Sequence record: OP557969.1
Origin: Escherichia phage ph0011
Strand: one strand, 5' to 3'
Length of the DNA: 64,000 nucleotides
Below are positions 1 through 21,612 of this stretch, one piece after another. The position numbers and the translations under genes were made by a program. Every line of letters begins with the position of its first letter. Positions within the stretch are counted from its first letter, which is position 1. The notes under the pieces were generated by a model. That model was not told the DNA's origin. It ran no database searches and worked only from the letters and a program-made list of their open reading frames with translations.

Positions 1-2
1 TG

Positions 3-212
3 CATTTCAAGTACCAAGATGAAGAGGCAGACAATTATCCTTTACCTAATTTAGTACAAATACAGGAAGAGGAATTATTCCAGTACAGTTTAGTATACGA
101 CATTGATATTTGCACGATGCCAGTATTAATTAATATACAAAAAGTGATGCTCGATATGTATGATAAGCTAATACAAGGTATGTCAGGGAGGATCATTGAA
201 ATCGATATATAA
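3..212 (+). CDS. FQ-family paralog, 5' end truncated by window edge
   Basis: Open frame from window start to TAA at 210-212; contains family core motif EEELFQYSLVYD. Confidence 0.5.
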   Translation, partial: HFKYQDEEADNYPLPNLVQIQEEELFQYSLVYDIDICTMPVLINIQKVMLDMYDKLIQGMSGRIIEIDI

Positions 213-408
213 GAATTTACCTAATGCATATATGTTGAAGTACAAAGAGTTTATTAAAGATGTATATGTAGATCCTTTCAATATAAAATTATCAGAGTTC
301 GATGTATTATTTTATCTAGGGACAATAGTACAGGACCAATACGTTAATAATCTAATAAGGTGTTTGAAAAAGGAGATACAATGCAGACCCAAATGTACAA
401 AAAAATAA
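196..408 (+). CDS. small hypothetical protein, family B (LFYLGT motif)
   Basis: ORF track; probable TTG start after GGGAGG at 185-190; motif LSEFDVLFYLGTIVQ shared with ORFs at 381, 11717, 11913. Confidence 0.4.
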   Translation: MKSIYKNLPNAYMLKYKEFIKDVYVDPFNIKLSEFDVLFYLGTIVQDQYVNNLIRCLKKEIQCRPKCTKK

Positions 409-644
409 ACCGTTATTTGTATGCATCAAAGTACAGGGATTTTTGTTTACAAGGAGGTGAGGACGATTTCGGTCTGAGGTTATCGGAATTTAATATGTTA
501 TTTTATCTTGGTACATCCGTACAAGAAGAAATGGTTCAGAAATTTCTCAATAACCTTGTACAAAAAATTAATATTCAAATTATGATGCATAAATTACAGA
601 ATGAGATAAATGAATATGAATCTAGAAATAGTTCAGGATCTTAA
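381..644 (+). CDS. small hypothetical protein, family B (LFYLGT motif)
   Basis: ATG at 381 preceded by AGGAG; motif LSEFNMLFYLGTSVQ. Confidence 0.55.
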   Translation: MQTQMYKKINRYLYASKYRDFCLQGGEDDFGLRLSEFNMLFYLGTSVQEEMVQKFLNNLVQKINIQIMMHKLQNEINEYESRNSSGS

Positions 645-1005
645 AAAAGTAATATTTCTTTTGAATACAAGAAGCTCTTTATATAAGGAGTTCAAAGATA
701 AGGATAGTTCTTTTAAACCAGTATGTATAGAATTCAATGATTTAATTACAGATGCATTGTTTGAATTTTCCGAGAAATATCAAGATACAGTGTTTGGTGT
801 TAGGAATGCTATTCATCCAATTACAGGCACAAGGAAGATAACGTTATCTCATTTTACATTTGACAATAAAGATTTATTCAGTTATAATCCCAGTACATCT
901 TTATATTTTATTCCAAAAGGAGACAAGAATAGTCCGATTCATTACGGATGGATTATATCTTATGTAGTGCAAGGAAAGGAGTATCCTATCAAATGGCACG
1001 ATTAG
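610..1005 (+). CDS. hypothetical protein
   Basis: ATG-initiated 131-aa ORF, same strand, no FQ motif. Confidence 0.5.
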   Translation: MNMNLEIVQDLKKVIFLLNTRSSLYKEFKDKDSSFKPVCIEFNDLITDALFEFSEKYQDTVFGVRNAIHPITGTRKITLSHFTFDNKDLFSYNPSTSLYFIPKGDKNSPIHYGWIISYVVQGKEYPIKWHD

Positions 1006-1145
1006 GACAGGAAGATTATAGTTTAAATATATTATTAAGAAATATTAATGCGGATTATTGTGTATGGGTTAAGAATCGAGACATGATGTATTATGATTTT
1101 TATTTAGATTATGCCATCAAACGCTTTTTAAGAGAAGAATATTAA
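993..1145 (+). CDS. small hypothetical protein
   Basis: In-frame ATG at 993 after AAGGAAAGGAG; short, uncertain. Confidence 0.3.
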   Translation: MARLGQEDYSLNILLRNINADYCVWVKNRDMMYYDFYLDYAIKRFLREEY

Positions 1146-1321
1146 TGAAAGTGGTTAATACAAAAGCAATAAATGATTTAAATGATTCTTTATTAGTAAG
1201 TATTAAGTTGTATTATAATATTCATTTAAAGGGTGGTATTAACGATTTTAGTTATTACTTAAGTGCAATATCACAAGAGCATTTAAATTATCAAGATCAT
1301 TTATTACATCCAAATCATTAA
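1145..1321 (+). CDS. small hypothetical protein (58 aa)
   Basis: Hand-translated ORF below the track cutoff; TAATG start-stop overlap with upstream ORF; fills an otherwise empty interval. Confidence 0.3.
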   Translation: MKVVNTKAINDLNDSLLVSIKLYYNIHLKGGINDFSYYLSAISQEHLNYQDHLLHPNH

Positions 1322-1329
1322 GGCAAATT

Positions 1330-1890
1330 ATGAATGAGATAGAGTTATTATCACACAAGATTAGTACAATAGCTACAGTACTGAACAACAAAAATAAAGT
1401 ACATAGTTCCTTTTTAAGAATTAATAAAGTTGGTAGTAGTTTATATTTGGAAGTAAAAGCGGGTTTTGCAGGACAGTACAATGATAAAATCAAAGAAGAA
1501 GTTAAGGGAAATGAAGATGCTTTCATTGAGGTTTGTGCAACAGTTGGTTCAAATCCAATTTCAGTATCACCGTTAATGCGAAATGAAAATTCAGAATTTG
1601 ATTCCAGTTTCGAAGGTTATTTGTGGTACAATTATGGTGATAATTATTTTATATATCAGAATTCCAAAACGAATTATAGTGAAGAAGGTATAAAATTCAT
1701 TGATCCTTACAATGAAGCAGAAGTATTTCAGAAATCCCTAATATACAATACAAATCAAATGAAGTATCTTATGTTGTTTAGTACAATGCATTTGAATCCA
1801 TTGAAAGATAATTTAAAATTTTTCATTCGTTTAGAATTAGTTGATATTACTTATGATCTTTTAATCCAAGGAAGTAGTTATGAAGTATAA
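1330..1890 (+). CDS. FQ-family paralog
   Basis: ATG ORF; core motif EAEVFQKSLIYN. Confidence 0.65.
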   Translation: MNEIELLSHKISTIATVLNNKNKVHSSFLRINKVGSSLYLEVKAGFAGQYNDKIKEEVKGNEDAFIEVCATVGSNPISVSPLMRNENSEFDSSFEGYLWYNYGDNYFIYQNSKTNYSEEGIKFIDPYNEAEVFQKSLIYNTNQMKYLMLFSTMHLNPLKDNLKFFIRLELVDITYDLLIQGSSYEV

Positions 1891-2194
1891 AATGATGTAT
1901 ACACCATCATTAGTATATGTAGAATTAGAATCAAATGATAATGGGTGGAATTTCATTAAACATATCGATACCAATACATGGTACATGGCTCACTTGGATA
2001 ATAATGTGGTATCAGACCATTTTATGGATTTCAATATCTTAGATGAAGATGAATTTTTCCAAATGCAATTGGTGCTTGACACAAATGGTTTTGATATGGT
2101 ATTATTAAAGAATATACAGAAAGCTGTTGATGAATTAATAGCTGAACATAATTTGAGCGAAATAAGGATTAGTTATGACCTCGAAGTACTGTGA
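1880..2194 (+). CDS. FQ-family paralog
   Basis: ATG ORF after AGGAAG; core motif EDEFFQMQLVLD. Confidence 0.6.
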   Translation: MKYKMMYTPSLVYVELESNDNGWNFIKHIDTNTWYMAHLDNNVVSDHFMDFNILDEDEFFQMQLVLDTNGFDMVLLKNIQKAVDELIAEHNLSEIRISYDLEVL

Positions 2195-2525
2195 GTTTGA
2201 AATTAATAAGTTAAGAGAATGGTTTTATAATATTGAAATTGAGGCCATTCCTTATCATACATATGAACAAAGTGATTTACAATGTATTGATATTAGGGAG
2301 TTGTACAAATATTATCAAAGTGCGTTAGAGATGCATAAATTATTTTTGAGTACGGATTTCTTTATGCAGTATAATTTTGAGGAATATAATAATTATAACT
2401 TAGTACAGAAATACGTAGTAGCAAAGTACATGTACATTCAAGGTATTAAAGGTTGTATTGAATTCAATACTGTTCTTGCTTTAGTTGAGGTAATTTTATG
2501 TACAGCATGTGCATATCTAATTTAG
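2175..2525 (+). CDS. hypothetical protein
   Basis: ATG ORF 116 aa; no family motif. Confidence 0.5.
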   Translation: MTSKYCEFEINKLREWFYNIEIEAIPYHTYEQSDLQCIDIRELYKYYQSALEMHKLFLSTDFFMQYNFEEYNNYNLVQKYVVAKYMYIQGIKGCIEFNTVLALVEVILCTACAYLI

Positions 2526-3016
2526 AGTTTAGTTTAGATGCAGCCTTTAAATTTGCACATAAGATAGAAACAATATATAGTTTTTTTAGTGAAGTTTATG
2601 AAGTTTGTGCTAAACGATATATCGATACAATAGACATTAGCAATAAGTTCGATGTATGGCACAAAACAATCCAAAGCAAAAAGCAGTGTGCAGCAGTTTT
2701 TAGTGTTTTATCATTTAATCCCAGCAATTGTTACCCAGAGAAGCATGAACGTTATCCCAATGACGACATGTGGTTTGTGTACAAAGAAGATGCTGATATG
2801 TCGTCATTTGAAGTTCCTGATAATTTTGATATCAGTGATTTAACAGAAGAGTGGTGGTTCCAGCAGAATTTAGTACATGATGATATTGATTTATTTTTCT
2901 ATATCGTGTTCAAAATACTTTATCACAACAATATAGTTAAAGATAGTGTATCGTTTTCATGTCTATATATTGATGAGTTGTTCGAAGATATCAAAAATCT
3001 CAAGCCTGTATCGTAA
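2498..3016 (+). CDS. FQ-family paralog
   Basis: ATG ORF; core motif EEWWFQQNLVHD. Confidence 0.65.
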   Translation: MYSMCISNLEFSLDAAFKFAHKIETIYSFFSEVYEVCAKRYIDTIDISNKFDVWHKTIQSKKQCAAVFSVLSFNPSNCYPEKHERYPNDDMWFVYKEDADMSSFEVPDNFDISDLTEEWWFQQNLVHDDIDLFFYIVFKILYHNNIVKDSVSFSCLYIDELFEDIKNLKPVS

Positions 3017-3031
3017 GATATGGGCTTTTTT
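3002..3031 (+). terminator. candidate weak intrinsic terminator
   Basis: AAGCC...GGCTT stem around stop codon followed by TTTTTT. Confidence 0.35.
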
Positions 3032-3033
3032 GT

Positions 3034-3062
3034 TTGACTCAAGTACAAATGAATGGTACAAT
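3034..3062 (+). promoter_or_regulatory. sigma70-like early promoter
   Basis: TTGACT-N17-TACAAT about 25 nt upstream of the ATG at 3088. Confidence 0.45.
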
Positions 3063-3087
3063 GTGAAATCATTTTAAGGAGAACCCT

Positions 3088-3636
3088 ATGGAAAATTTTC
3101 AAATACCACAAGATTACGATACAGCGAAAGAGATGGTACACAAGGTTCATTACATTTTTAATGAATTAATTATTGCAAATTCATCCTGTATGCAAATTGA
3201 GTTAAAGGGTATTAATAGTGAAGAAGTTTTTTTGGCTTCTCCAAGTTCAATTATTCCGTTGTATGGTATGGACCGTTTATGGTTCATGAGAGATGCACCA
3301 ATTGACAGGTACAAAATACAAAAAAAATCAGAGAATGATTTTCTTTATGATTATTTTAATATTTCATTACAAGCACACGATATAAGTACAATGAGTGCAG
3401 AGGAATATTTTCAGCACAGTACAGTGTATAGTCCAGAAGAAATCTTTGTTGTTATGCTTGTTGCAAAATTGAGTACTGTTGATTTTGGGACGTACCCAAA
3501 TAAATCATTCAAGATTATTATTCCTGCATTTGTTGATCTTTATGATTTCATTGTGCACAAGAAAGAAAGTACAGTGTACGATATGCAGCGTTCAAATATC
3601 AGTTTAATTGCAGTAAGTGCAGGGGAATTAAAATGA
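3088..3636 (+). CDS. FQ-family paralog
   Basis: ATG after AAGGAG; core motif AEEYFQHSTVYS. Confidence 0.7.
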   Translation: MENFQIPQDYDTAKEMVHKVHYIFNELIIANSSCMQIELKGINSEEVFLASPSSIIPLYGMDRLWFMRDAPIDRYKIQKKSENDFLYDYFNISLQAHDISTMSAEEYFQHSTVYSPEEIFVVMLVAKLSTVDFGTYPNKSFKIIIPAFVDLYDFIVHKKESTVYDMQRSNISLIAVSAGELK

Positions 3637-4241
3637 ACATAGACCAATTAATGAAGTACAGTAAAAGTACAGTTCCAGTACTAAGTAAAGTGTTAGATGC
3701 CTTCACTGCTAAGTACCCTGAAGGTTCAGAGTTAAATATTCCTTTTACTACACCAGGGATTGATGATACTTACATGGTACACATTGGTAGTTCAGGTATT
3801 GTTTTGAAGCAAAAGTACAGTGATAGTGAATATTATGGTTTGAAACTGGATAAAATTTCAGGAGAGAAGACACCTTTTGAGTTTTGGATTCCGAATAGTA
3901 TTGAATCATGGAATACACATATTAATAAGAGAGACGAAGGTAATATTTCTCTTGTAAATTATAAGGAAAAAAGATTTGACGTATTTTATTATTACAGTAC
4001 AGATACGTTTCCAGAAGAGATTTATTTAAATTCAGAGATGTATGAAGATATTGAATCATTTTTCTTTCAGTTATCATTGGTACATGATATCATGCCATTG
4101 CAAGCGTTCAGGGATGAAATAAATTTAGCGAAAGAGATTTCGGATATGTTACCTGAATTTAGTGTTCTTTATGGTAGTAGAGCTTTACCTGAAAATGTGT
4201 ATATAGAATTTATTTCTTGTGTTCAAGGATTGAATATATAA
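3633..4241 (+). CDS. FQ-family paralog
   Basis: ATGA overlap with upstream stop; core motif ESFFFQLSLVHD. Confidence 0.7.
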   Translation: MNIDQLMKYSKSTVPVLSKVLDAFTAKYPEGSELNIPFTTPGIDDTYMVHIGSSGIVLKQKYSDSEYYGLKLDKISGEKTPFEFWIPNSIESWNTHINKRDEGNISLVNYKEKRFDVFYYYSTDTFPEEIYLNSEMYEDIESFFFQLSLVHDIMPLQAFRDEINLAKEISDMLPEFSVLYGSRALPENVYIEFISCVQGLNI

Positions 4242-4242
4242 T

Positions 4243-4437
4243 ATGAACGAAGATGATATCAAAAAAAGGCATACGAAGTTTGAACTGCTCCCTGACGAAA
4301 TCCACATTGATATAGTTAATTTTAACATCAAAGCGTCCTTGCATCCTATATCACAAGATGATTTTGACAACAGAGTGCTTAACATAGTGGTGATTTTGTG
4401 CTATAATCATTTCAGTGAATATTTTAACAAAAGATGA
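4243..4437 (+). CDS. small hypothetical protein
   Basis: ATG ORF 64 aa directly after upstream stop. Confidence 0.45.
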   Translation: MNEDDIKKRHTKFELLPDEIHIDIVNFNIKASLHPISQDDFDNRVLNIVVILCYNHFSEYFNKR

Positions 4438-4444
4438 GGTACAT

Positions 4445-4966
4445 ATGTATCAGCACACGTACAATACATCATATGAGTATGGGTACAGCATTTTGAAGAT
4501 TATCAAAGCGTTAGAGGGTGGATTGCTTAGTCATAAGTACACCAGAGTAGGTGACAATTGGTTCAGAAATGATGATGATGAGTTCAGAAGTCATAAAATC
4601 GTTTACAGTAATAATTACAGTGCTAATTATCTTCAGGATGTGGTTATGTGCTTTGAATACGTGTTACAGTTCAGGGGTTCCATCAGACCAGAGTTAAGAG
4701 AACACATGTACATTCGATACCTACCAATGCTTGAGGATGAGAAATCAATATTCAATTCAGTACACCACAGAGTACGAGATAGAACATTCAGGAATATTTT
4801 GGAAGATGAAGCTGCCTATTTTCAGCGATCATTGATTGATGCTCCTGATGTGTTACAGATGCAGAATTTGTATAATGTATTAGATGCGAACATCGATACT
4901 GATATCTTTTTTTCCTTAAGTGATTATGAAACATGTTTGGAAGATTTAAAGGAAATAGGATTATGA
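4445..4966 (+). CDS. FQ-family paralog
   Basis: In-frame ATG at 4445 after GAGG; core motif EAAYFQRSLIDA. Confidence 0.65.
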   Translation: MYQHTYNTSYEYGYSILKIIKALEGGLLSHKYTRVGDNWFRNDDDEFRSHKIVYSNNYSANYLQDVVMCFEYVLQFRGSIRPELREHMYIRYLPMLEDEKSIFNSVHHRVRDRTFRNILEDEAAYFQRSLIDAPDVLQMQNLYNVLDANIDTDIFFSLSDYETCLEDLKEIGL

Positions 4967-5307
4967 GTGGATTTACAGTATATATAGTAAACGTCAGTAC
5001 AGATGGTAGTTTAATTGAATTTGATGTAGTTGATGACGATGATAATGCATATGGTATTAAGGTGCAAGACAATGTTGTGCAGTTCAGTACAAGAACAAAT
5101 TACGAAAATCCAGTTCCTGTTCCTAATTTCATAGAAGACGAAGCTGTACGATTCCAATACGAAACTGCCTTTGACAATATAGCGATGCATATTATTATGC
5201 AACACAGTTTAGTTCAATTAGTTCCTTTATTTAGACAAAATGTATATGTACATGAATTGTCGATTAATAACGTTCAAAGTTCCGTTTTGTTCGGCACAAA
5301 TATGTAA
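4963..5307 (+). CDS. FQ-family paralog (divergent)
   Basis: ATG at 4963 overlapping upstream TGA (ATGA); motif EAVRFQYETAF. Confidence 0.55.
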   Translation: MSGFTVYIVNVSTDGSLIEFDVVDDDDNAYGIKVQDNVVQFSTRTNYENPVPVPNFIEDEAVRFQYETAFDNIAMHIIMQHSLVQLVPLFRQNVYVHELSINNVQSSVLFGTNM

Positions 5308-5316
5308 GGAAGGATA

Positions 5317-5859
5317 ATGAGTTTATTAGATACCATAGAAAAAGACAGAAGTGCCATTAAGAGATTAAAAAATCTGGTTCTGTGTATTGTGAACAACGTT
5401 GAAAAGTTTGAAGTCCAAGGAAGAATTGGTGATATTTCACATACAGGAATAAAATCCCTGAAGTCAGATTTATTAATTCATAAGGAAGATAAATTATTAT
5501 TTGTATTGAGTTCAGATTTATTGGTTGCAAGTAATGGTTTCAATTCGGTATCAACACAAGATGGTAGTACTGGATTATATCTATCACAGGGTGTACAGAC
5601 GAATGAACATAAGTGTTTTAGTTCAAGAGTACAGAATCCCTTTAAGTTTAATACAGAACAAGCTACAGAGCTTTTTGAGGCTTCAGAAGAGATGTTATTT
5701 CAGTACAAAATGGTCTATACAGATTTTGAAATACGATGCCTATACGCTGTTAAGCATTATGTACAAGAGTTCGAAGATTTAAATTATCTTTTAGTTCGAA
5801 CGAATACGAAGAACATTGACATATTAGAAGATTACATTTCAACAGTTGTTAGTGTGTAA
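5317..5859 (+). CDS. FQ-family paralog
   Basis: ATG after GGAAGGA; core motif SEEMLFQYKMVY. Confidence 0.65.
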   Translation: MSLLDTIEKDRSAIKRLKNLVLCIVNNVEKFEVQGRIGDISHTGIKSLKSDLLIHKEDKLLFVLSSDLLVASNGFNSVSTQDGSTGLYLSQGVQTNEHKCFSSRVQNPFKFNTEQATELFEASEEMLFQYKMVYTDFEIRCLYAVKHYVQEFEDLNYLLVRTNTKNIDILEDYISTVVSV

Positions 5860-6034
5860 TGGGATGTTGCTTATGAAGGAGTTATTTGATGAACAGTTCA
5901 ATGTATTAATGGATAATATTCTTTTTTATAGCCTTGGTAGTAAACGAGGAAATCGTGCTTACAATATAGATTACATATTAACTGTGTTGAGTTCACAGTA
6001 CACATATGCTGTGCAGAGGACATATTATGAATAG
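5846..6034 (+). CDS. small hypothetical protein (start uncertain)
   Basis: ORF track only; track start is TTG, in-frame ATG at 5873; weak. Confidence 0.25.
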   Translation: MLVCNGMLLMKELFDEQFNVLMDNILFYSLGSKRGNRAYNIDYILTVLSSQYTYAVQRTYYE

Positions 6035-6212
6035 TTATAGTGGTGTTGCTAAGGAGAAGTTAAATTGTAGTTTAGATTTTGGCTTAAATGATTTTCTTAC
6101 GTGCACAATGTTCAGGAATGATGATTATGAACAATCCGTAATTTCGTTGTATAGATATTTTGAAATAATTTACACAAGATACCTTAGAAGGTTAGAGGGA
6201 TTGGAATTATGA
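6027..6212 (+). CDS. small hypothetical protein
   Basis: In-frame ATG at 6027 after AGAGGA. Confidence 0.4.
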   Translation: MNSYSGVAKEKLNCSLDFGLNDFLTCTMFRNDDYEQSVISLYRYFEIIYTRYLRRLEGLEL

Positions 6213-6427
6213 TTTATGAACAAAAAGTACCAAGTGGTTATAGTGTTGATGGTTTTGAATTCATGATGGATTTGGTTTTAAAGAATACATTAGTAGTACA
6301 CCGTGCATTACCGGACCATGTAGATAGTGCGGTTCAACGAATAATGAATGTATACGAGATGACGAGTCGAAAGCTTTGTGCAATGAAAAGGATTGAAGAA
6401 ATCAAGCGTTCTAGGATGAATAATTAG
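6209..6427 (+). CDS. small hypothetical protein
   Basis: ATGA overlap with upstream stop; 72 aa. Confidence 0.45.
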   Translation: MIYEQKVPSGYSVDGFEFMMDLVLKNTLVVHRALPDHVDSAVQRIMNVYEMTSRKLCAMKRIEEIKRSRMNN

Positions 6428-6567
6428 AGACGTTTCGTATGATGTATTCAAACGTACAATAAAACAATACTATATAACTTTTTATAATTGATATTTTTTA
6501 AAAAATACACAATCACAACGTGCTCCTTTTATTGGAATTTACCTTATTAATTATAGTTGAGGGGAAG

Positions 6568-6945
6568 ATGGAAATGAAATATAAAGATTTTCATATAGGG
6601 ACATGGATGTACACTGGTGAGTTTATTACGTGCTGTAATTTATACAAGCGTGATTTAAACTACTCAAGGGAGAAGGTTATAAAGTTCGCAGATTCACAAT
6701 TTTATTTTATGGAGTTAAGTACTGGAATTCGTGTTAAATCAACCGTTATGCTGGATTATACAGTTCTGGATGAGGCACAATTATTTCAGGAGTCATTAGT
6801 ATTTGATAAGAAGTACAACTGTACATTAGAAGAGATAGTTGAAATCCAGCGTAGGATCAAATTTATTCACAAGGATTGTATCGATAAATGGTGTAAAACT
6901 GGTGAAACTAATTTTAGTAATTATTTCAATCTAGGGGAAGAGTGA
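6568..6945 (+). CDS. FQ-family paralog (short form)
   Basis: ATG at 6568 after GAGGGGAAG; core DEAQLFQESLVFDKKYNCTLEE. Confidence 0.7.
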   Translation: MEMKYKDFHIGTWMYTGEFITCCNLYKRDLNYSREKVIKFADSQFYFMELSTGIRVKSTVMLDYTVLDEAQLFQESLVFDKKYNCTLEEIVEIQRRIKFIHKDCIDKWCKTGETNFSNYFNLGEE

Positions 6946-7301
6946 TGGAATTTGATTTTGTAATATCAGTACATTCTTTCAAGAATAGTTTTCAGTACTT
7001 TTGTAATTTAAACAAAGGTGATTTAATGCACAGTGCAAATGAGTATATTCATTACACTGCTGGTAAATTTACATTTATTGATTACGATTCATTACAGTAT
7101 CCACATCAGGATATGCCGGACTTTACATTAATGGATGAGGCCGAACTATTCCAAGCTGCATTAGTATTCGATAAGAAGTACTTGTGTACACTAGAAGAAG
7201 TAATTGCCATACAAAATGAAATAAAAGAGTATGCTGCTTTGAATAAATCCAATGTAAGTATTAATCAAGAATACAAATTCAATATAGGAATTACAGAATG
7301 A
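6942..7301 (+). CDS. FQ-family paralog (short form)
   Basis: ATGA overlap; core DEAELFQAALVFDKKYLCTLEE. Confidence 0.7.
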   Translation: MMEFDFVISVHSFKNSFQYFCNLNKGDLMHSANEYIHYTAGKFTFIDYDSLQYPHQDMPDFTLMDEAELFQAALVFDKKYLCTLEEVIAIQNEIKEYAALNKSNVSINQEYKFNIGITE

Positions 7302-7663
7302 CATTTGATTATTCGATATACGTTTGCAAGTCCAGAACGGGGTGGGATTTGTGCTGTAATCTTGTCAAGGGTGACTCGGAACATGAGTTGAGTTTATATA
7401 TTCAGTACTCGGATTTGTGTTTTAATTTTATTGATGTATTGTATGATGACTTCGACTATAACTCTGAAAGTATTACAGATTATACAGTACTGGATGATGC
7501 TGAACTATTTCAAGCTTCTTTGGTGTTTGACAAGAATAAGTACTCATGTACAATAGAAGATATGATTTTTATACAAAATGAAATGAAGAGATATGTCAAA
7601 GAAAACACCTTTGATACATCTACACCAACAACAAGTAATTATTATTTCAATACAGGTGAGTAA
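7298..7663 (+). CDS. FQ-family paralog (short form)
   Basis: ATGA overlap; core DDAELFQASLVFDKNKYSCTIED. Confidence 0.7.
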   Translation: MTFDYSIYVCKSRTGWDLCCNLVKGDSEHELSLYIQYSDLCFNFIDVLYDDFDYNSESITDYTVLDDAELFQASLVFDKNKYSCTIEDMIFIQNEMKRYVKENTFDTSTPTTSNYYFNTGE

Positions 7664-7664
7664 T

Positions 7665-8006
7665 ATGGAATATGATTTTTCTATTTATATGCCTATAATT
7701 AGTTCACAAGATGTGTATTGTAATCTTAATAAAGGTGATTACGAACACAAAATGGATCAGTACATTAAATTTAATGGTGCGTACTTTAGCTTCATTGATT
7801 ATCAGGCCAAAGGATCAGTTGTAGAAAATATGAAAGACTATACAACAGTACATGGTGAGGCTGAAATATTTCAAGAGTCATTAATATTCGACAAGAAGTA
7901 CTTGTGTACTCTAGAGGAAGTAATTGAACTCCAACAGAAGATGAAAGAATATAGAAGAATCTACACAGAGACTGGTTCCAAAGATAGGTATCGTTTTAAG
8001 CTATGA
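7665..8006 (+). CDS. FQ-family paralog (short form)
   Basis: ATG at 7665 directly after upstream TAA; core GEAEIFQESLIFDKKYLCTLEE. Confidence 0.7.
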   Translation: MEYDFSIYMPIISSQDVYCNLNKGDYEHKMDQYIKFNGAYFSFIDYQAKGSVVENMKDYTTVHGEAEIFQESLIFDKKYLCTLEEVIELQQKMKEYRRIYTETGSKDRYRFKL

Positions 8007-8188
8007 ATAAAAAAGAACAAATGGAATCATTCATGAATACAATACTTCGACGATTCGTAATTGATATTAGACATAACAACATTACCAGGAATGACATGTG
8101 CTTCGGTACATATAATATTAGTGAATTGTATATAGCTAATATTCACATGGTGTACCGAGATTATATCCAGACACTACACGGGAGTTGA
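8003..8188 (+). CDS. small hypothetical protein
   Basis: ATGA overlap; 61 aa. Confidence 0.45.
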   Translation: MNKKEQMESFMNTILRRFVIDIRHNNITRNDMCFGTYNISELYIANIHMVYRDYIQTLHGS

Positions 8189-8189
8189 T

Positions 8190-8660
8190 ATGAGTTTTGA
8201 AAGAGCATTAGAAATTGCTAAGTTAATTGATGTATGTAAAAAAGAAATAGTGCTCAACAGACTCAATGGGTATCTATTCAAGGAAGGTAAATCTTATTGC
8301 CGAATGATATACGATGACAGTAGTGAATATATTCACATGTATGAAGAAAATCTTGATGAATCTGAAACAACACTCACTGGGTGTGATGTTAATCTGGAAG
8401 ATAATTACATGTACTTCTGTCGTGATGCTGATATTTTAATACAAGAAACATCATATCAAACTGGGAATCCAGAGGTATATCTTCCATATTCAGTACTGGA
8501 TAATGACTGGGGAAGTGAAGAGTTCTACTTCCAGCAGAATACTATCTACGATGAAGATGTACTTGACAAGCTTGTCATTCTGTGGTACTTTAAGAACACT
8601 GATACTCCTAACTTCTATATAGATTTGGATCTACTAAGAGTTATTAATGAGGATATATGA
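8190..8660 (+). CDS. FQ-family paralog (long form)
   Basis: ATG after GGGAG; N-terminal MSFERALEIAK; core PYSVLDNDWGSEEFYFQQNTIYD...WYFK. Confidence 0.7.
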   Translation: MSFERALEIAKLIDVCKKEIVLNRLNGYLFKEGKSYCRMIYDDSSEYIHMYEENLDESETTLTGCDVNLEDNYMYFCRDADILIQETSYQTGNPEVYLPYSVLDNDWGSEEFYFQQNTIYDEDVLDKLVILWYFKNTDTPNFYIDLDLLRVINEDI

Positions 8661-9097
8661 GTTTAGTAAGTGCACTTGAACTGGCACACAAAATACACAA
8701 CTTCCATGATAAAATAAAAAGTGGGTTTTATGGTGATAACGTAAGTGAATTTGGTAATGAGTATTATCTATCAAGTTCAAATACATACGCTGATGATATT
8801 TTACTTATGGGTCATGATAAAGACAATACTATACAGTACTCTTCATGTAGTCAATATGCTAGTTTTATGGTATATATTCCAGGAACTAAGATTACTTTTG
8901 ACACATCAAATACACCTGTTGACTTCGGGGTACTTGATGGTCCATGGGGTACTGAAGAGTATTACTTCCAACAGAGTCTTATTTTTAGCCAAGAGATGCT
9001 TGATACCTTGGTTGTGTTGTGGTACTTTAAAGAATTGAATTTTGAACCATTCTTTCTTGACTGGGGAGCATGTGAGTATTTAAGTTCAGGAGAATAA
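8657..9097 (+). CDS. FQ-family paralog (long form)
   Basis: ATGA overlap; N-terminal MSLVSALELAHK; core GPWGTEEYYFQQSLIFS...WYFK. Confidence 0.7.
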   Translation: MSLVSALELAHKIHNFHDKIKSGFYGDNVSEFGNEYYLSSSNTYADDILLMGHDKDNTIQYSSCSQYASFMVYIPGTKITFDTSNTPVDFGVLDGPWGTEEYYFQQSLIFSQEMLDTLVVLWYFKELNFEPFFLDWGACEYLSSGE

Positions 9098-9099
9098 TA

Positions 9100-9567
9100 A
9101 TGTCATTGCGAAGTGCATTGAAAGAAGCAAAGAAGATCCATAATTACATGATTATGGTACAAGAAGGTTCCGTGCCTGGTGTATATAAAACATCTGATAC
9201 TGAATTTTTCGTAAAAGATCGAGATGATTATGATGAGTCAGAGATATGTGCAGAAACGTTAGTACTGCACATTGATACGGATGATACTGATGACTGTGAA
9301 TATCAGATGCACAATCAATACCTTAGTTATTATAGGGATGAAGATATTATAATTTACACTCCTGATTACGATGATGATAACATAATCATTCCGTATTCAG
9401 TTCTGGAAGGTCCATGGGATAGTGAAGAATATTATTTCCAGCAAAGTACTGTGTATAATGAAGATGTTTTAGATGTTATTGTAATTATGTGGTACTTTAA
9501 AAGTATTGATTCTGACAGTTTCTATTTCGATTATGAATACGTAGAGAATACTGTAGGGGGAAGATAA
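9100..9567 (+). CDS. FQ-family paralog (long form)
   Basis: ATG after AGGAG; N-terminal MSLRSALKEAKK; core GPWDSEEYYFQQSTVYN...WYFK. Confidence 0.7.
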   Translation: MSLRSALKEAKKIHNYMIMVQEGSVPGVYKTSDTEFFVKDRDDYDESEICAETLVLHIDTDDTDDCEYQMHNQYLSYYRDEDIIIYTPDYDDDNIIIPYSVLEGPWDSEEYYFQQSTVYNEDVLDVIVIMWYFKSIDSDSFYFDYEYVENTVGGR

Positions 9568-10010
9568 TGTCATTACAAAGTGCTCTTGAAAAAGCAAAAG
9601 AACTTCATGCATATATTGAAGATATTAAGGCTGGGAAGTTCGAAGAAATATACAAAGCCGAGAATGGTAACTACTACAAGGATAGTGATTTTGCTACAAC
9701 TACAGTTATTCTTGGGTTGAATTCCAAAAGTCCAGTAGACTTTTCTCAATACAATCCAGATGCAGAATTTATTAGTTATGCTTATGGTGGCGAAATCCGT
9801 TTTTATAATCGCAGCAGACCTTTAAAATTGAACTTTGAAGTACTGAAAGGTCCGTGGGATAGTGAAGAGTACTACTTCCAGAATAGAACTTTGTATGATG
9901 ATGAAGTTCTAGATACTTTAGTTATTATGTGGTACTTTAAAAGTATTGATAGTACAAGATTTTATTTGGATTATGAATATGTACGTGAAGTTTATAAGGG
10001 TAAACGATGA
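9567..10010 (+). CDS. FQ-family paralog (long form)
   Basis: TAATG overlap; N-terminal MSLQSALEKAKE; core GPWDSEEYYFQNRTLYD...WYFK. Confidence 0.7.
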   Translation: MSLQSALEKAKELHAYIEDIKAGKFEEIYKAENGNYYKDSDFATTTVILGLNSKSPVDFSQYNPDAEFISYAYGGEIRFYNRSRPLKLNFEVLKGPWDSEEYYFQNRTLYDDEVLDTLVIMWYFKSIDSTRFYLDYEYVREVYKGKR

Positions 10011-10321
10011 AATTCTTATACAATATTCAGTACATTCCGGGTACAATTAGTTTAATGTATTTCTTCGACCATGATAATTTCCAACATCTTGCAGTTAGGA
10101 GATGTAATGAATCTTTAATGATCGAATATCTTCACGATTGTGATTATCTTCCTGACTTACTTGAATGTGATTACAGAGATGAGCATGAATCATTTCTGTT
10201 TCAGGAATCACTTGTATGGGACAAGAGAATAAATTTTTATGTTTTACTTGAGATACAAAAACAAGTAAAGTACTACTGGGATTACTTAATCACCCAAGAC
10301 TATATAGAGATTGAAATATAA
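10007..10321 (+). CDS. FQ-family paralog (short form)
   Basis: ATGA overlap; core HESFLFQESLVWDKR. Confidence 0.65.
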   Translation: MKFLYNIQYIPGTISLMYFFDHDNFQHLAVRRCNESLMIEYLHDCDYLPDLLECDYRDEHESFLFQESLVWDKRINFYVLLEIQKQVKYYWDYLITQDYIEIEI

Positions 10322-10764
10322 TGTACGAAAGTGATCTTAAGCACGCTGAAGAATTAGTTAATATAGTAAAGTTCTTTCAAAATAATGTAAAGTACTTAGA
10401 CTATAAAGGGGCTTATATTAGTACTATAAGTGTTGGTACAGATATTCTAGGATTAGGCAATGAATATAAGTACGAGTCCCATGATTATGACTTGGAATTC
10501 AAGTACTTCGTATGGGATTCTGGAACTTTCTATTCTATAGATGAAGATGGCAAATATTTTGAATTCACAGAAGAAGAAGTTCTATTCTTAAATTCAGAAG
10601 ATGCTTACTTTCAATATAGTACTATATACCCAAACGCGGCGTTAAGAGCTTTAGTAGTTTTTAATGCATTTCTGAAAGAGAACTTTAACAATTCTATATT
10701 CATTGATTTAGATTATGTATATGAACTAAATCAGGTGATATATATGGAGTCCAGAAAAGAATGA
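10321..10764 (+). CDS. FQ-family paralog
   Basis: TAATG overlap; core SEDAYFQYSTIYP. Confidence 0.65.
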   Translation: MYESDLKHAEELVNIVKFFQNNVKYLDYKGAYISTISVGTDILGLGNEYKYESHDYDLEFKYFVWDSGTFYSIDEDGKYFEFTEEEVLFLNSEDAYFQYSTIYPNAALRALVVFNAFLKENFNNSIFIDLDYVYELNQVIYMESRKE

Positions 10765-11216
10765 GTTATGAAAGTGCACTAAAAAAGGCTAATGATATTC
10801 TACGCGTTGTTCAGTTCTTAAAGGACTATCCTGTTTATGTAGATGATGAACGCAGAGAAGTTTCTAATGGCACGAAGATTACAATTGATTCTTTATTTGA
10901 CACTAGCAGCAACAACTGTAGTACTATTGAATTAGCATACGATTATATTTCATTGAACAGAAAATATGATGAAGTTACGATAGAGCGTCATGAGGATGAA
11001 GAATCTTTTAAAATTTCTGATATTTTATCCCTGAGTACTGAAGAAGGGTACTTCCAGGGAAGTACTCTTTATAATGAAGAAACACTTGACAATCTATGTA
11101 CATTTAGTGTACTATATCAGAAGTCAGTACTGGATATATTTTATCTAGACACTGAAAAACTTGATAGGTTAGTTGATTTCGTTACTATAGAAGAGGCATC
11201 CTTTGAGAAAAATTAA
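10761..11216 (+). CDS. FQ-family paralog
   Basis: ATGA overlap; N-terminal MSYESALKKAND; core TEEGYFQGSTLYN. Confidence 0.65.
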   Translation: MSYESALKKANDILRVVQFLKDYPVYVDDERREVSNGTKITIDSLFDTSSNNCSTIELAYDYISLNRKYDEVTIERHEDEESFKISDILSLSTEEGYFQGSTLYNEETLDNLCTFSVLYQKSVLDIFYLDTEKLDRLVDFVTIEEASFEKN

Positions 11217-11739
11217 CATTAATGATTATGATGCATTACAAGATTTATCAAAAAAGATTCGCACTATCGTACCAGTACTGAAGAAATGCAGTACTGGATT
11301 AATCGATCCTAGTACAGTTATTAGTGAGAAGTACAATTTTCATAAACTGTTACAAGGGAATGGTGCATTCCAGAAGTGTGAGATACGTGAGACACACGTA
11401 ATTGATACATCATTGTTTTCTATTGGTGCACCTGTGTCGAATAATACTATTTTCCTAGACAACGCTGGAAATATTCAACAATTAACATTTAAGAAAAGGA
11501 AAAAGAACAATAACATTGGTGTGTATGCGATGAAGTGGGGTCAACCTGATTTGAAGCGTGAAATTCACATCCCTAAGTACAATTACAATGCATTTGACGA
11601 ACAGTGTTTTCAACTATCGTGTACTGACCCTGACTATGCTATCATTCAGTTCTATATGGAATTGCAGATTGCATTTAACAGTAATTTGTATATTAACTTA
11701 TTGGCGATGAACATCGATGAAGTATTCAAAAACATTTAA
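11203..11739 (+). CDS. FQ-family paralog (divergent), probable TTG start
   Basis: No in-frame ATG near 5' end; TTG at 11203 after GAAGAGG; motif FDEQCFQLSCTDP. Confidence 0.5.
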   Translation: MRKININDYDALQDLSKKIRTIVPVLKKCSTGLIDPSTVISEKYNFHKLLQGNGAFQKCEIRETHVIDTSLFSIGAPVSNNTIFLDNAGNIQQLTFKKRKKNNNIGVYAMKWGQPDLKREIHIPKYNYNAFDEQCFQLSCTDPDYAIIQFYMELQIAFNSNLYINLLAMNIDEVFKNI

Positions 11740-11935
11740 TCGAATTGAATACATGAGAACTGTGAGTGCAGTGTGGGACATATGGTTCACTACTAAACCA
11801 AAAATGGATTACCATGACTTTAAGCTATTGTTCTTCGTTGGCTCTAACAAACAGGATGTTGCAATGAAGGGTTATATTCAGCACTTACAGGAACTAATCC
11901 AGAAGAGAATATATGAAAATAATAGACCAAGATGA
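11717..11935 (+). CDS. small hypothetical protein, family B
   Basis: ATG ORF; motif DFKLLFFVGSNKQ; overlaps upstream gene by 23 nt, start uncertain. Confidence 0.45.
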   Translation: MKYSKTFNRIEYMRTVSAVWDIWFTTKPKMDYHDFKLLFFVGSNKQDVAMKGYIQHLQELIQKRIYENNRPR

Positions 11936-12104
11936 TATTGCTAAACTATTCAATATATATTCTTCTAAAATGATGCAAATCGACTCATATAGTACTGAAT
12001 TCAAAGAATTAAAAGTACTGATGTATTTGGGTACACAACATCAGGAACAAGTTGTTAAAGAATATATTGATTCATTACAGAAGGATATACGTTATGTACA
12101 ATGA
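11913..12104 (+). CDS. small hypothetical protein, family B
   Basis: ATG ORF; motif LKVLMYLGTQHQEQVV. Confidence 0.5.
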   Translation: MKIIDQDDIAKLFNIYSSKMMQIDSYSTEFKELKVLMYLGTQHQEQVVKEYIDSLQKDIRYVQ

Positions 12105-12648
12105 GCTTGACTTAGCATTTGAACGTGTAAAAATCTTCATTGAAACTTATCTTATGCACAAAACTATATTGAAAACAAAAGGAATATGGTTCACTGATAA
12201 ATTTCTTACTATGGCTAAGAGAGATGGAATGGAACATCTTTACTGTACAGATAGTGCCAGAATTTCAGTACTGAATTATGATGAAAGTGTATCATCTGGT
12301 ACTAGTTTAATTTCGACATATAATGATAATATTACTAGTATTATGTATACTAAAAATTGTTCAAATGTTTCTGTATATAAAAACTGTGATAGTTCATTAT
12401 CGTACAATATCGATCAGTACTTTTATCCTAATACAGAAGAAAACATCTTTCAAAATAGTCTTATATTGGATGATACATCTAATAAATGTATATATCTTTA
12501 TAATAAATTAAAAGAGTACATTGATAACAGTTCAATTAGAACTAATACATTCAGTGTTTCTGTTTTAAATTATAATAAGGAAGATGTGTTTTATTATACA
12601 GAAATTGAAAGAATACATACAATGTATAAGGAACTACTATGTTATTAA
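12094..12648 (+). CDS. FQ-family paralog
   Basis: In-frame ATG at 12094 after GAAGGA; core TEENIFQNSLILD. Confidence 0.6.
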   Translation: MYNELDLAFERVKIFIETYLMHKTILKTKGIWFTDKFLTMAKRDGMEHLYCTDSARISVLNYDESVSSGTSLISTYNDNITSIMYTKNCSNVSVYKNCDSSLSYNIDQYFYPNTEENIFQNSLILDDTSNKCIYLYNKLKEYIDNSSIRTNTFSVSVLNYNKEDVFYYTEIERIHTMYKELLCY

Positions 12649-13241
12649 ATGCAAATAAATGTTGTAGTGCTGATGTTCATGTATATTTTAAGAAATTAGT
12701 CAATGATATCATCTATATGCAAGAAATCATTTATCACAAAAGAATGGACTTAGAAAAAGCATTAGCTCAGTTCTCTTTTAATCTAGATGGTGATATATCT
12801 TTAGATGGTGATGGGTTACGTATAACATTAGACAGCAATTCCAATAGAGTTTTCTTTTGGATAGATAATAAATTATGTTCCTCAATTTGTCGCACTTTTT
12901 ATAACCCTATTTCGGACTTGTATCAATTGGTTTATTCGAAAGGTGCGGTTGAAGCATCATATGGTGATAGTTTTGCACTAGGGAAGTCCATTCCATATAT
13001 GCAAACATTTGATATTGAATTAGTCAGTACTGATGAAGATGTAATGTTCACAAATGATCTAACGATGCAGCGTGAATCTGCAATGAGATATATAACAAAT
13101 TCAATGCATACCTTCTTTAAAATAGCAGAATTTGATAATGTATATATATCAAATGTAAATATTTTCACTGACTTGTGTCAGTTTTTGAGAAATATTTTTG
13201 ATTTTGATGAAAGATATTCTAAGTTTTATACTGAGGTTTAA
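12639..13241 (+). CDS. hypothetical protein (possibly a divergent FQ-family member)
   Basis: ATG ORF 200 aa; only a weak motif-like segment DEDVMFTNDL. Confidence 0.55.
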   Translation: MLLNANKCCSADVHVYFKKLVNDIIYMQEIIYHKRMDLEKALAQFSFNLDGDISLDGDGLRITLDSNSNRVFFWIDNKLCSSICRTFYNPISDLYQLVYSKGAVEASYGDSFALGKSIPYMQTFDIELVSTDEDVMFTNDLTMQRESAMRYITNSMHTFFKIAEFDNVYISNVNIFTDLCQFLRNIFDFDERYSKFYTEV

Positions 13242-20541: not shown

Positions 20542-21047
20542 ATTTATTAAATGCACGCGAATTGGTTGAGATGTATGAGATATTGTCTACATATAAAAAT
20601 TCACCTGACGATGTAATTATCAACAAAAAGTTCCATGTCAGTGTTGATCATATGACAAATATAGATATGATTTCTTTGGTTGAAAGTAATAAGTCAGGTC
20701 TTGAACGTGATATCATGCGTTTGATTTATATTCCCAAACCATCATATCCTAATGATAGTTCAATTAGTAATGAGACTTTTATATATAATCCTTATACTGA
20801 TTGTACTTTAGTTTCGGTATCGAATCAGAAACAAGATACTTTTCAATTCATCTATACCAGTACTGATAACCTTGAAGAAATCGAATTCCAAAATAATACA
20901 TTAAGTCCATGTGGAAGTATTATTGCATTCATGTCATATCTGTGGTCAATCAAATCAGATACCATAGTATATAGTTCAAATTATACACAGGATTGTATTG
21001 TTGAATCATTTAAAGTTCTAAAGGAATACTATGAAAATAACAAATGA
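20538..21047 (+). CDS. FQ-family paralog
   Basis: ATGA overlap; core LEEIEFQNNTLSP. Confidence 0.65.
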   Translation: MNLLNARELVEMYEILSTYKNSPDDVIINKKFHVSVDHMTNIDMISLVESNKSGLERDIMRLIYIPKPSYPNDSSISNETFIYNPYTDCTLVSVSNQKQDTFQFIYTSTDNLEEIEFQNNTLSPCGSIIAFMSYLWSIKSDTIVYSSNYTQDCIVESFKVLKEYYENNK

Positions 21048-21612
21048 TTTTATTAAAAGTTTAGTACACCCTATGCTTAGTGTTATGAAAAAATCACAGT
21101 CTCTACCTGAAGATAACGATTACAAGTATAATCGTTTTGATTCAGATGTGTTTTGTATTGAAATGGAAATTAATAACAATCGTGATTTTTATTTAAAATT
21201 CAAAGAATCTTCAAGTTCGTACTACAATTTTGACATGAATTTCAAAATGGACACAAATATTGAAGAAAACGCAATTTCAAATCATATTAGTAGAAATGGT
21301 TTTATGTATAGATCTAATATGCATAATAATAAAAAAAGTGTTAGATCTAAATGGAACCAGCAATTCACTAAAATTTGTGAAATTGATAGCAGTACTTTTG
21401 GTGAAGAACAATATTTTCAATTAAGCACAATTCATGAACTACCACCATATGATTTTGTTAAAACATGGTTTGATATTCATAATATAATTGATGAAACAAT
21501 TGAACTTCCATTTAGTTTATCAATATCATATACTGCAACTAAAACGTTTATTTTTACTGAAGATATGATTATGAAAAAAATATGGGCAATGCTCCCTCTT
21601 ATGAGTGATTAA
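21031..21612 (+). CDS. FQ-family paralog
   Basis: ATG after AAGGA; core GEEQYFQLSTIHE. Confidence 0.65.
   Translation: MKITNDFIKSLVHPMLSVMKKSQSLPEDNDYKYNRFDSDVFCIEMEINNNRDFYLKFKESSSSYYNFDMNFKMDTNIEENAISNHISRNGFMYRSNMHNNKKSVRSKWNQQFTKICEIDSSTFGEEQYFQLSTIHELPPYDFVKTWFDIHNIIDETIELPFSLSISYTATKTFIFTEDMIMKKIWAMLPLMSD

Follow-up and report, generated by a model that had tools for sequence, protein, structure and literature searches.

A 64,000-nucleotide stretch of DNA from Escherichia phage ph0011 (sequence record OP557969.1; we refer to the whole stretch as the window) carries two pairs of short open reading frames (ORFs), ~11 kb apart, whose predicted products share a small motif built around Leu-Gly-Thr. 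Are such short, overlapping frames genes, is one pair a copy of the other, and what might proteins of this kind do for the phage? The original prediction, which was made from the sequence alone, held that the four ORFs form a paralog family and that the two pairs are consistent with segmental duplication within a long array of genes for proteins with an FQ motif. From the data described below we conclude that all four encode real proteins of ~70 amino acids (aa), which belong to a single lineage-specific family, the LGT-N-x-Q-E family. The four genes, designated A to D, are as follows.

196-408, + strand: family member A, 70 aa, starting at a TTG codon that follows a GGGAGG Shine-Dalgarno sequence by 5 nt
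381-644, + strand: family member B, 87 aa, with an ATG start after AAGGAG
11717-11935, + strand: family member C, 72 aa, the most divergent of the four
11913-12104, + strand: family member D, 63 aa

As predicted, each locus is an overlapping tandem pair, with an overlap of 28 nt between A and B and of 23 nt between C and D. The overlaps extend to the neighboring genes: the start of A overlaps the upstream FQ gene by 17 nt, C overlaps the FQ gene on its upstream side by 23 nt, and D overlaps the downstream FQ gene by 11 nt. B has an alternative GTG start at position 360, which would give a protein of 94 aa, and a C-terminal extension of ~25 aa. C has FFVGSNKQD at the position where the family has LGTNxQE.

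Pairwise BLASTP comparison of the four proteins gave 45 bits for A and B, 33 for A and D, 31 for B and D, 26 for C and D, and ~23 for C with either A or B. Because the weakest of these pairs were unconvincing on their own, we built leave-one-out profile hidden Markov models (HMMs), in which a model made from three members was compared with all 929 six-frame stop-to-stop segments of the window (58,317 aa). In each case the best non-training match was the member left out of the model (E = 1.9e-12 for A, 2.8e-10 for B, 8.1e-6 for C and 2.8e-10 for D), with the next-best matches at E values of at least 0.04. With a broad family HMM the four were found at E values of 4e-19 or lower and everything else in the window at 0.09 or higher. 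A fifth member was not found in any of the six frames of the 64-kb window with either the four-sequence HMM or the broad HMM. All four proteins also matched phrog_4148, covering most of the length of this 74-position profile (E = 1.4e-17 for D over positions 1-70, 8.7e-6 for A over positions 9-68, 4.5e-4 for B and 8e-4 for C). The leave-one-out models and the phrog_4148 matches bear out the claim that these ORFs form a genuine paralog family. The sequence motif proposed for the family was sound only in part: the long regular expression as originally written matches D alone, whereas its core, L[FM][YF][LV]G[TS]..Q, picks out A to D and nothing else in six frames. Similarity among the four is not confined to this motif, since it spans ~55-65 alignment residues.

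The four frames are conserved in related phages. A protein identical to A is present in public data (P0001), as is one that is 100% identical to B (P0002), and B is represented by 37 ortholog clusters. Protein identity of A to D to their orthologs is ~70-97%, and other members of the family are as low as ~42%. The frames of A to D were intact in every relative examined except CMSTMSU, which is an UNVERIFIED assembly with apparent frameshifts. Ratios of nonsynonymous to synonymous substitution (dN/dS), calculated by the method of Nei and Gojobori, were 0.28-0.44 for B, 0.06-0.44 for C and 0.08-0.23 for D, and 0.44 for A when compared with PBECO4; C is 97% identical in aa sequence to its PBECO4 counterpart. 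The A ortholog of phAPEC6 (L005 9172-9411) is intact and has the same TTG context, and it is unannotated. Two intact members of Turkey3, at L001 4157-4411 and 8351-8650, one of them the B ortholog, are likewise absent from the deposited annotation. The gaps in annotation of the Turkey3 and phAPEC6 members are likely caused by the overlaps and the TTG start.

Comparison with complete relatives showed that the family extends well beyond the window. A megablast search of window positions 1-13000 against GenBank phages matched only phages of the Asteriusvirus group, which are jumbo coliphages and Salmonella phages of ~350 kb. Turkey3, fEgEco12 and CMSTMSU matched best, at ~90% identity, and PBECO4 was at ~82%. 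A metagenome scaffold of 348,427 bp (ENA ERZ28597589; L010) is 98.7% identical to, and collinear with, window positions 1-10636. In Turkey3 the four-sequence HMM found ~27 more small ORFs, arranged head to tail just upstream of the equivalent of window base 1, and iteration of the HMM converged on 32-33 members, with none in the preceding 22 kb. The Turkey3 layout is repeated in PBECO4, CMSTMSU, phAPEC6, fEgEco12 and the metagenome scaffold: a gapless run of 27-28 family genes comes first, then two genes of the FQ type and a solitary family member. Two or three other genes separate this member from the A/B pair, and FQ-type genes covering ~11 kb lie between A/B and C/D. In the scaffold the main run stops ~1.3 kb short of window position 1, which makes A and B the 29th and 30th members of a series and not an isolated pair. 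To describe the family as two tandem pairs understates it, as ~27 further members lie just upstream of the window edge; the picture of two pairs is an artefact of the window boundary, which leaves only four outlying members visible. The statement that both pairs lie inside the FQ array holds for C/D but not for A/B, which are at its upstream edge.

Genes of the main array are all on the same strand, with overlapping starts and stops that include 4-nt overlaps of the ATGA type, and in fEgEco12 they occupy ~6 kb without intergenic space. This gapless arrangement with ATGA overlaps suggests one long transcript and coupled translation. Copy number is 32-34 per genome and stable across the genus: the scaffold has 30 members up to and including A/B, and PBECO4, Turkey3 and phAPEC6 have 32-34 in the whole region. 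Reciprocal best hits between the scaffold and three other genomes were collinear for 28-29 of the 30 members, at 42-98% identity, which indicates that the family is old and that each copy has been individually retained. Paralogs are 13-36% identical to one another and are separated by at least 1.35 substitutions per site, compared with 0-0.35 between window and PBECO4 orthologs. Neither near-identical copies nor differences in copy number between close relatives, as would be expected of a recent "accordion" amplification, were seen. These data indicate that the copies arose by tandem duplication long ago and that purifying selection has kept each of them in collinear one-to-one orthology. One member, at Turkey3 L001 2137-2388 (P0135/P0153), has an insertion at the signature turn (LMTGTDK...AI.. 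compared with LGTNYQE); this divergent variant, which the first HMM failed to detect, is conserved throughout the genus. Between the solitary member and the FQ genes that precede A/B, Turkey3 also has an 81-aa ORF (L001 7323-7568) with a strongly hydrophobic N-terminus, the product of which is probably membrane-anchored.

The genes that flank the two pairs are listed below.

3-212, + strand: 3′ part of an FQ-motif gene (EELFQYSLVYD in the frame-3 translation), truncated by the window start and immediately upstream of A; its ortholog is Turkey3 L001 7901-8212
610-1005, + strand: gene downstream of B, 131 aa, phrog_29252, without the FQ motif
11203-11739, + strand: FQ-motif gene upstream of C, 178 aa, phrog_18780
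12094-12648, + strand: FQ-motif gene downstream of D, 184 aa from the ATG at 12094, phrog_32681

When window positions 1-1400 were compared with positions 10901-12900 by sensitive blastn, only short, non-collinear matches were obtained, the best at 35 bits. For comparison, locus 1 against 25 unrelated control chunks of the window gave a mean of 27.5 and a maximum of 39.7 bits, so that the check proposed for a duplicated segment in the flanking nucleotides revealed nothing above background. A repeat search likewise found no segment common to the two loci. The proteins that flank A/B show no homology to those that flank C/D (E = 0.5 and 3.9), and the two sets fall into different PHROGs. In a bootstrapped neighbor-joining tree of 36 family members, A and B grouped together in 57% of replicates, C and D in 0%, A and C in 8%, and B and D in 4%; D fell among members of the main array and C was on a long isolated branch. 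Duplication of a pair would predict that A groups with C and B with D. The tree favors neither grouping, which argues against such a duplication. Moreover, orthologs of A to D already occupy the same positions in PBECO4, Turkey3, phAPEC6 and CMSTMSU, indicating that no recent event was involved.

Two explanations other than an old gene family were weighed against these data. Chance open frames in AT-rich DNA, with the motif as a by-product of a nucleotide repeat, could account for ORFs that are short and overlap their neighbors, for the TTG start of A, and for the fact that several orthologs are unannotated in GenBank records. However, such frames would not be expected to stay intact at up to 30% protein divergence with dN/dS values below 0.5 for B, C and D, nor to give significant profile matches and a confidently predicted fold, and neither the repeat search nor blastn detected a nucleotide repeat beneath the motif; we therefore see almost no chance that the ORFs are not genes. 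In favor of the idea that A/B and C/D are copies of one duplicated section of the FQ array, each locus holds two overlapping tandem genes of this family, all four on one strand and beside FQ-motif genes. Against it stand nucleotide similarity between the loci that does not exceed the window-wide background, unrelated flanking proteins, support of only 8% and 4% for the groupings that it predicts when the nearest relative of A is B, and a layout that was already fixed in all of the Asteriusvirus genomes examined. Segmental duplication of array sections, as first proposed, is thus very unlikely. The evidence favors old copies that were each retained: an ancient tandem duplication may link A to B, C and D merely lie side by side, and neither pair is a copy of the other. 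As a separate matter, divergence from PBECO4 shifts sharply across the C/D pair, with 95% nucleotide identity for the upstream gene, 98.6% for C, 86.8% for D and 61.6% for the downstream gene (52% at the aa level), which suggests a recombination (mosaic) breakpoint at or within this pair (window 11203-12648).

The sequence signature of the family was derived from an alignment of 32 members. It covers ~70 residues and consists of an N-terminal M-K-x-L-T-x-x-E-Y and a near-invariant L-G-T-[NDQ]-x-Q-[ED], followed by V..YI..L...I..K. A to D all have the features by which we define the family, namely a length of ~60-95 aa, a turn of the form [LIVMF]-G-[TS]-x-x-Q-[EDQ] that lies ~25 residues before the C-terminus, and a conserved Leu 11 residues after the Q. 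An AlphaFold2 model of D, produced with a family alignment of 59 sequences, had a predicted local distance difference test score (pLDDT) of 93.8 and a predicted template modeling (TM) score of 0.77. It contains helices at residues 6-21, 28-38 and 44-62. LGT-N-x-Q-E occupies the turn that connects helix 2 to helix 3, and a one-residue bridge links the N-terminus to the G-T turn. The model of C, for which only its own three orthologs were used, was of low confidence (pLDDT 61.5) but had the same three-helix layout, with a break at G42-S43. Paralogs from 121Q and UB, as modeled in BFVD, superpose with TM scores of 0.72-0.83. The family protein is thus predicted to be a compact three-helix bundle.

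Conservation is restricted to the buried hydrophobic residues and to E8, E32, G40, T41, N42, Q44, E45 and K62; all remaining positions have an entropy above 3 bits. The T-x-x-Q/E that opens helix 3 of the model would act as a helix capping box. Predicted isoelectric points range from 4.4 to 10.0 and net charge from -7 to +10, with 16 of 36 members being acidic. A conserved core combined with a variable surface is the pattern of a scaffold with diversified surfaces, rather than that of an enzyme or a uniform nucleic-acid binder.

Database searches did not connect this fold to any characterized protein. Pfam yielded only sub-threshold matches to Ty3_capsid (E = 0.0012) and NTP_transf_6, and PADLOC-DB, which covers defence and anti-defence proteins, only sub-threshold matches (E = 0.01-0.03). 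The best match among PDB sequences was the winged-helix regulator SarA (E = 0.19, not significant). A Foldseek comparison with the PDB gave no informative structure, the best being HIV-1 CA (E = 4.3), and BFVD returned only models of the same family (121Q, UB, PBECO4 and slurp01). A retroelement capsid N-terminal domain was considered for D; the Ty3_capsid and HIV-1 CA hints are both insignificant, and we treated them as coincidence.

An exhaustive HMMER search of 1.84 billion cluster representatives (E ≤1e-3) gave 64 matches, all of 52-96 aa save one spurious actinobacterial repeat protein. Word-indexed homolog searches returned, among the matches listed, Asteriusvirus orthologs only. Matches in GenBank phages were to Escherichia records, the sole others being Salmonella phages (SD-1_S14 and relatives), and a second coliphage lineage with members comprises Turkey5, JNE01 and A4. 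Some matches of the exhaustive search have no counterpart in GenBank phages. Two uncultured contigs have packed arrays, one with at least 11 members (L006, 29% G+C) and the other with at least 16 (L008, 34.5% G+C), and in both the arrays are interleaved with, and then followed by, FQ-motif genes of ~160-200 aa. Since these two uncultured lineages are divergent, the association with FQ genes is older than the genus. The family is carried by Asteriusvirus-type jumbo coliphages and a few uncultured relatives, and it is almost absent from the remainder of the 1.84 billion representatives. Among spaced small genes upstream of its array, L008 (ENA ERZ14189038) has a ParE_like (PF24732) gene at 4172-4423, the only Pfam-annotated gene in 20 kb.

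The position of the array in the genome bears on its possible role. The physical ends of fEgEco12 have been determined experimentally and its direct terminal repeat is 20,993 bp (PMC13070987). In this phage the first family gene starts at 21,091, which is 98 bp inward of the repeat border, and the last spaced small repeat gene ends at 20,841. The resulting 250-nt gap (20,841-21,091, L013) contains TTGACT-16-TATTAT ~30 nt before the ribosome-binding site. The same gap has two TTGACT boxes, one of them with TATTAT, and a G-rich stretch, GGGGGCTAAAGGGCGGG, that is unusual for an AT-rich genome. The phAPEC6 orthologs are gp467c-489c, gp462c, gp433c and gp432c. Mass spectrometry of phAPEC6 virions (PMC7247149) identified 62 proteins, among which there was no gp39x-gp49x, including the family orthologs. 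Two marks of a host-takeover cluster are therefore present, location at the terminal-repeat border in fEgEco12 and lack of detection in virions in phAPEC6.

Taken as a whole, the data are best explained by an ancient ~32-copy family of three-helix proteins with an early, non-virion role in host interaction, an explanation that we hold to be somewhat better than an even bet. In this model transcription of the genes would begin early, at a host-type promoter on the inner border of the left terminal repeat, and the products would stay out of the virion. The proteins would be a diversified collection of small modules that each bind a host (or phage) protein of their own, and the collection would serve in host take-over or counter-defence. 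That all of this applies, with early expression from a host-type promoter and a small protein-binding panel directed at host or phage targets for take-over or counter-defence, is a tentative proposal to which we give about one chance in three. Several observations weigh against it. Small proteins are easily missed by virion mass spectrometry. The array promoter is a consensus match only, and promoter-like sites are not enriched overall. The dN/dS of A is ~1 against its closest relatives, although this value reflects only 6-11 substitutions. Finally, stable copy number and one-to-one orthology differ from what a fast arms race of the "accordion" type would produce, which somewhat weakens the counter-defence interpretation.

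Two other roles were considered for the family. The predicted three-helix bundle, with its glycine-containing turn between helices 2 and 3, and the identity of the best PDB sequence match, SarA, are what would be expected if these were helix-turn-helix (HTH)-like DNA-binding regulators that tune phage or host transcription. However, the SarA match is insignificant, no HTH family of Pfam was matched, the proteins vary in charge over the range given above with half of the members acidic, and the would-be recognition helix has core hydrophobics at its conserved positions and is variable elsewhere, so that we consider a regulator of this type quite unlikely. The small proteins could also be dedicated partners of the FQ proteins, such as adaptors, inhibitors or chaperones, in a two-component system. 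Members are interleaved with FQ genes at the array junction and inside the FQ array, both in Asteriusvirus and in the two uncultured lineages, and the overlapping frames suggest coupled translation. On the other hand, ~27 of the 32 copies form an array that no FQ gene interrupts, the copy numbers of the two families do not pair up, the families are unrelated, and adjacency of two tandemly expanding families would equally explain the interleaving; dedicated partnership is therefore rather unlikely. A panel of small, early host-interaction proteins is the explanation that we prefer over both of these roles. In its strongest form this panel would be a stable repertoire of ~32 three-helix binders, each neutralizing a different host factor or defence right after DNA entry; it may work jointly with the adjacent FQ family, the two being a conserved module by which a deep and largely uncultured clade of jumbo phages is defined, and its fold would be a new small scaffold for protein-protein inhibition. 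We regard this extended version as speculative and improbable.

The SPO1 terminal-redundancy module, the T5 pre-early region and the small early ORFs of T4 are host-takeover clusters composed mostly of unrelated genes, each with its own promoter. The array resembles these clusters in having many small, same-strand, non-structural genes at or beside a long terminal repeat, preceded by host-type promoter-like sequences. It differs in that one fold is repeated ~32 times without intergenic space, and its early expression and host targets are presumed. A second group of precedents consists of multigene or "accordion" expansions, such as the multigene families (MGFs) of African swine fever virus (ASFV), amplification of poxvirus K3L, and tifA of phage T4. 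As in the ASFV MGFs, K3L and tifA, one small gene has been tandemly expanded near a genome end, with the surface diversified on a conserved scaffold. Accordions are recent and have near-identical copies in variable number; in contrast, the paralogs described here are deeply diverged (at least 1.35 substitutions per site) and their copy number is stable (32-34).

The four genes are orthologs of already catalogued but uncharacterized hypothetical proteins of known jumbo coliphages. The same family is catalogued as phrog_4148, the members of which are "hypothetical proteins" of PBECO4, 121Q, phAPEC6, G17 and related phages. The phrog_4148 entry carries no function, structure or genomic description; copy number, layout, fold and distribution were worked out here. 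A literature search found neither a study of the family nor transcriptome or interaction data for it; tandem arrays in 121Q and phAPEC6 are mentioned in a single sentence. In 121Q, an Asteriusvirus, a run of ~30 same-strand paralogs was attributed to tandem duplication and seen as a way for the genome to expand (2017, mBio, PMC5646251). That run matches the arrangement found here, and the phAPEC6 paper repeats the remark. However, PMC5646251 gives neither coordinates nor a family definition and could mean either this family or the larger FQ array, and it speaks of "very similar" copies, whereas the paralogs here are ~15-40% identical. The family takes up ~2% of a 350-kb genome for one tiny fold. 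If its members are indeed early host-interaction factors, they would provide a compact, tractable panel for finding new phage-host interfaces and would help to explain how jumbo phage genomes grow by tandem duplication.

The FQ array itself occupies window positions ~1-25600 on the + strand and contains at least 28 ORFs of at least 85 aa with an [ED]..[FYW][FL]Q.[S..] motif. Across 16 aligned members, only the F and Q columns are invariant. The FQ proteins matched no Pfam family and are spread over many PHROGs. A common origin of the small family and the FQ family was considered and rejected (hhalign probability 0.03%).

The window is AT-rich (~32% G+C), and six-frame segments of at least 85 aa number 120 on the + strand and 25 on the other. 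All 2-kb bins have a positive GC skew, in keeping with coding mainly on the + strand. ARAGORN detected no tRNA or tmRNA genes in positions 1-64000. A scan of positions 1-13000 for promoters and terminators revealed no enrichment and no signal specific to either pair; five promoter-like sites scored at least 11 of 12, all on the + strand, and terminator-like hairpins were not more numerous than expected. A perfect sigma-70 consensus (TTGACA, 17 nt, TATAAT) is present at 860-888 on the + strand, inside the gene at 610-1005, and is kept in Turkey3 (L001 8869-8897). The only terminator-like hairpin on the + strand of positions 1-13000 is at 3002-3027 and has an 11-bp stem followed by a T-run. This hairpin spans the stop codon (3014-3016) of the gene at 2498-3016 and extends 11 nt beyond it, in an otherwise gapless FQ array.

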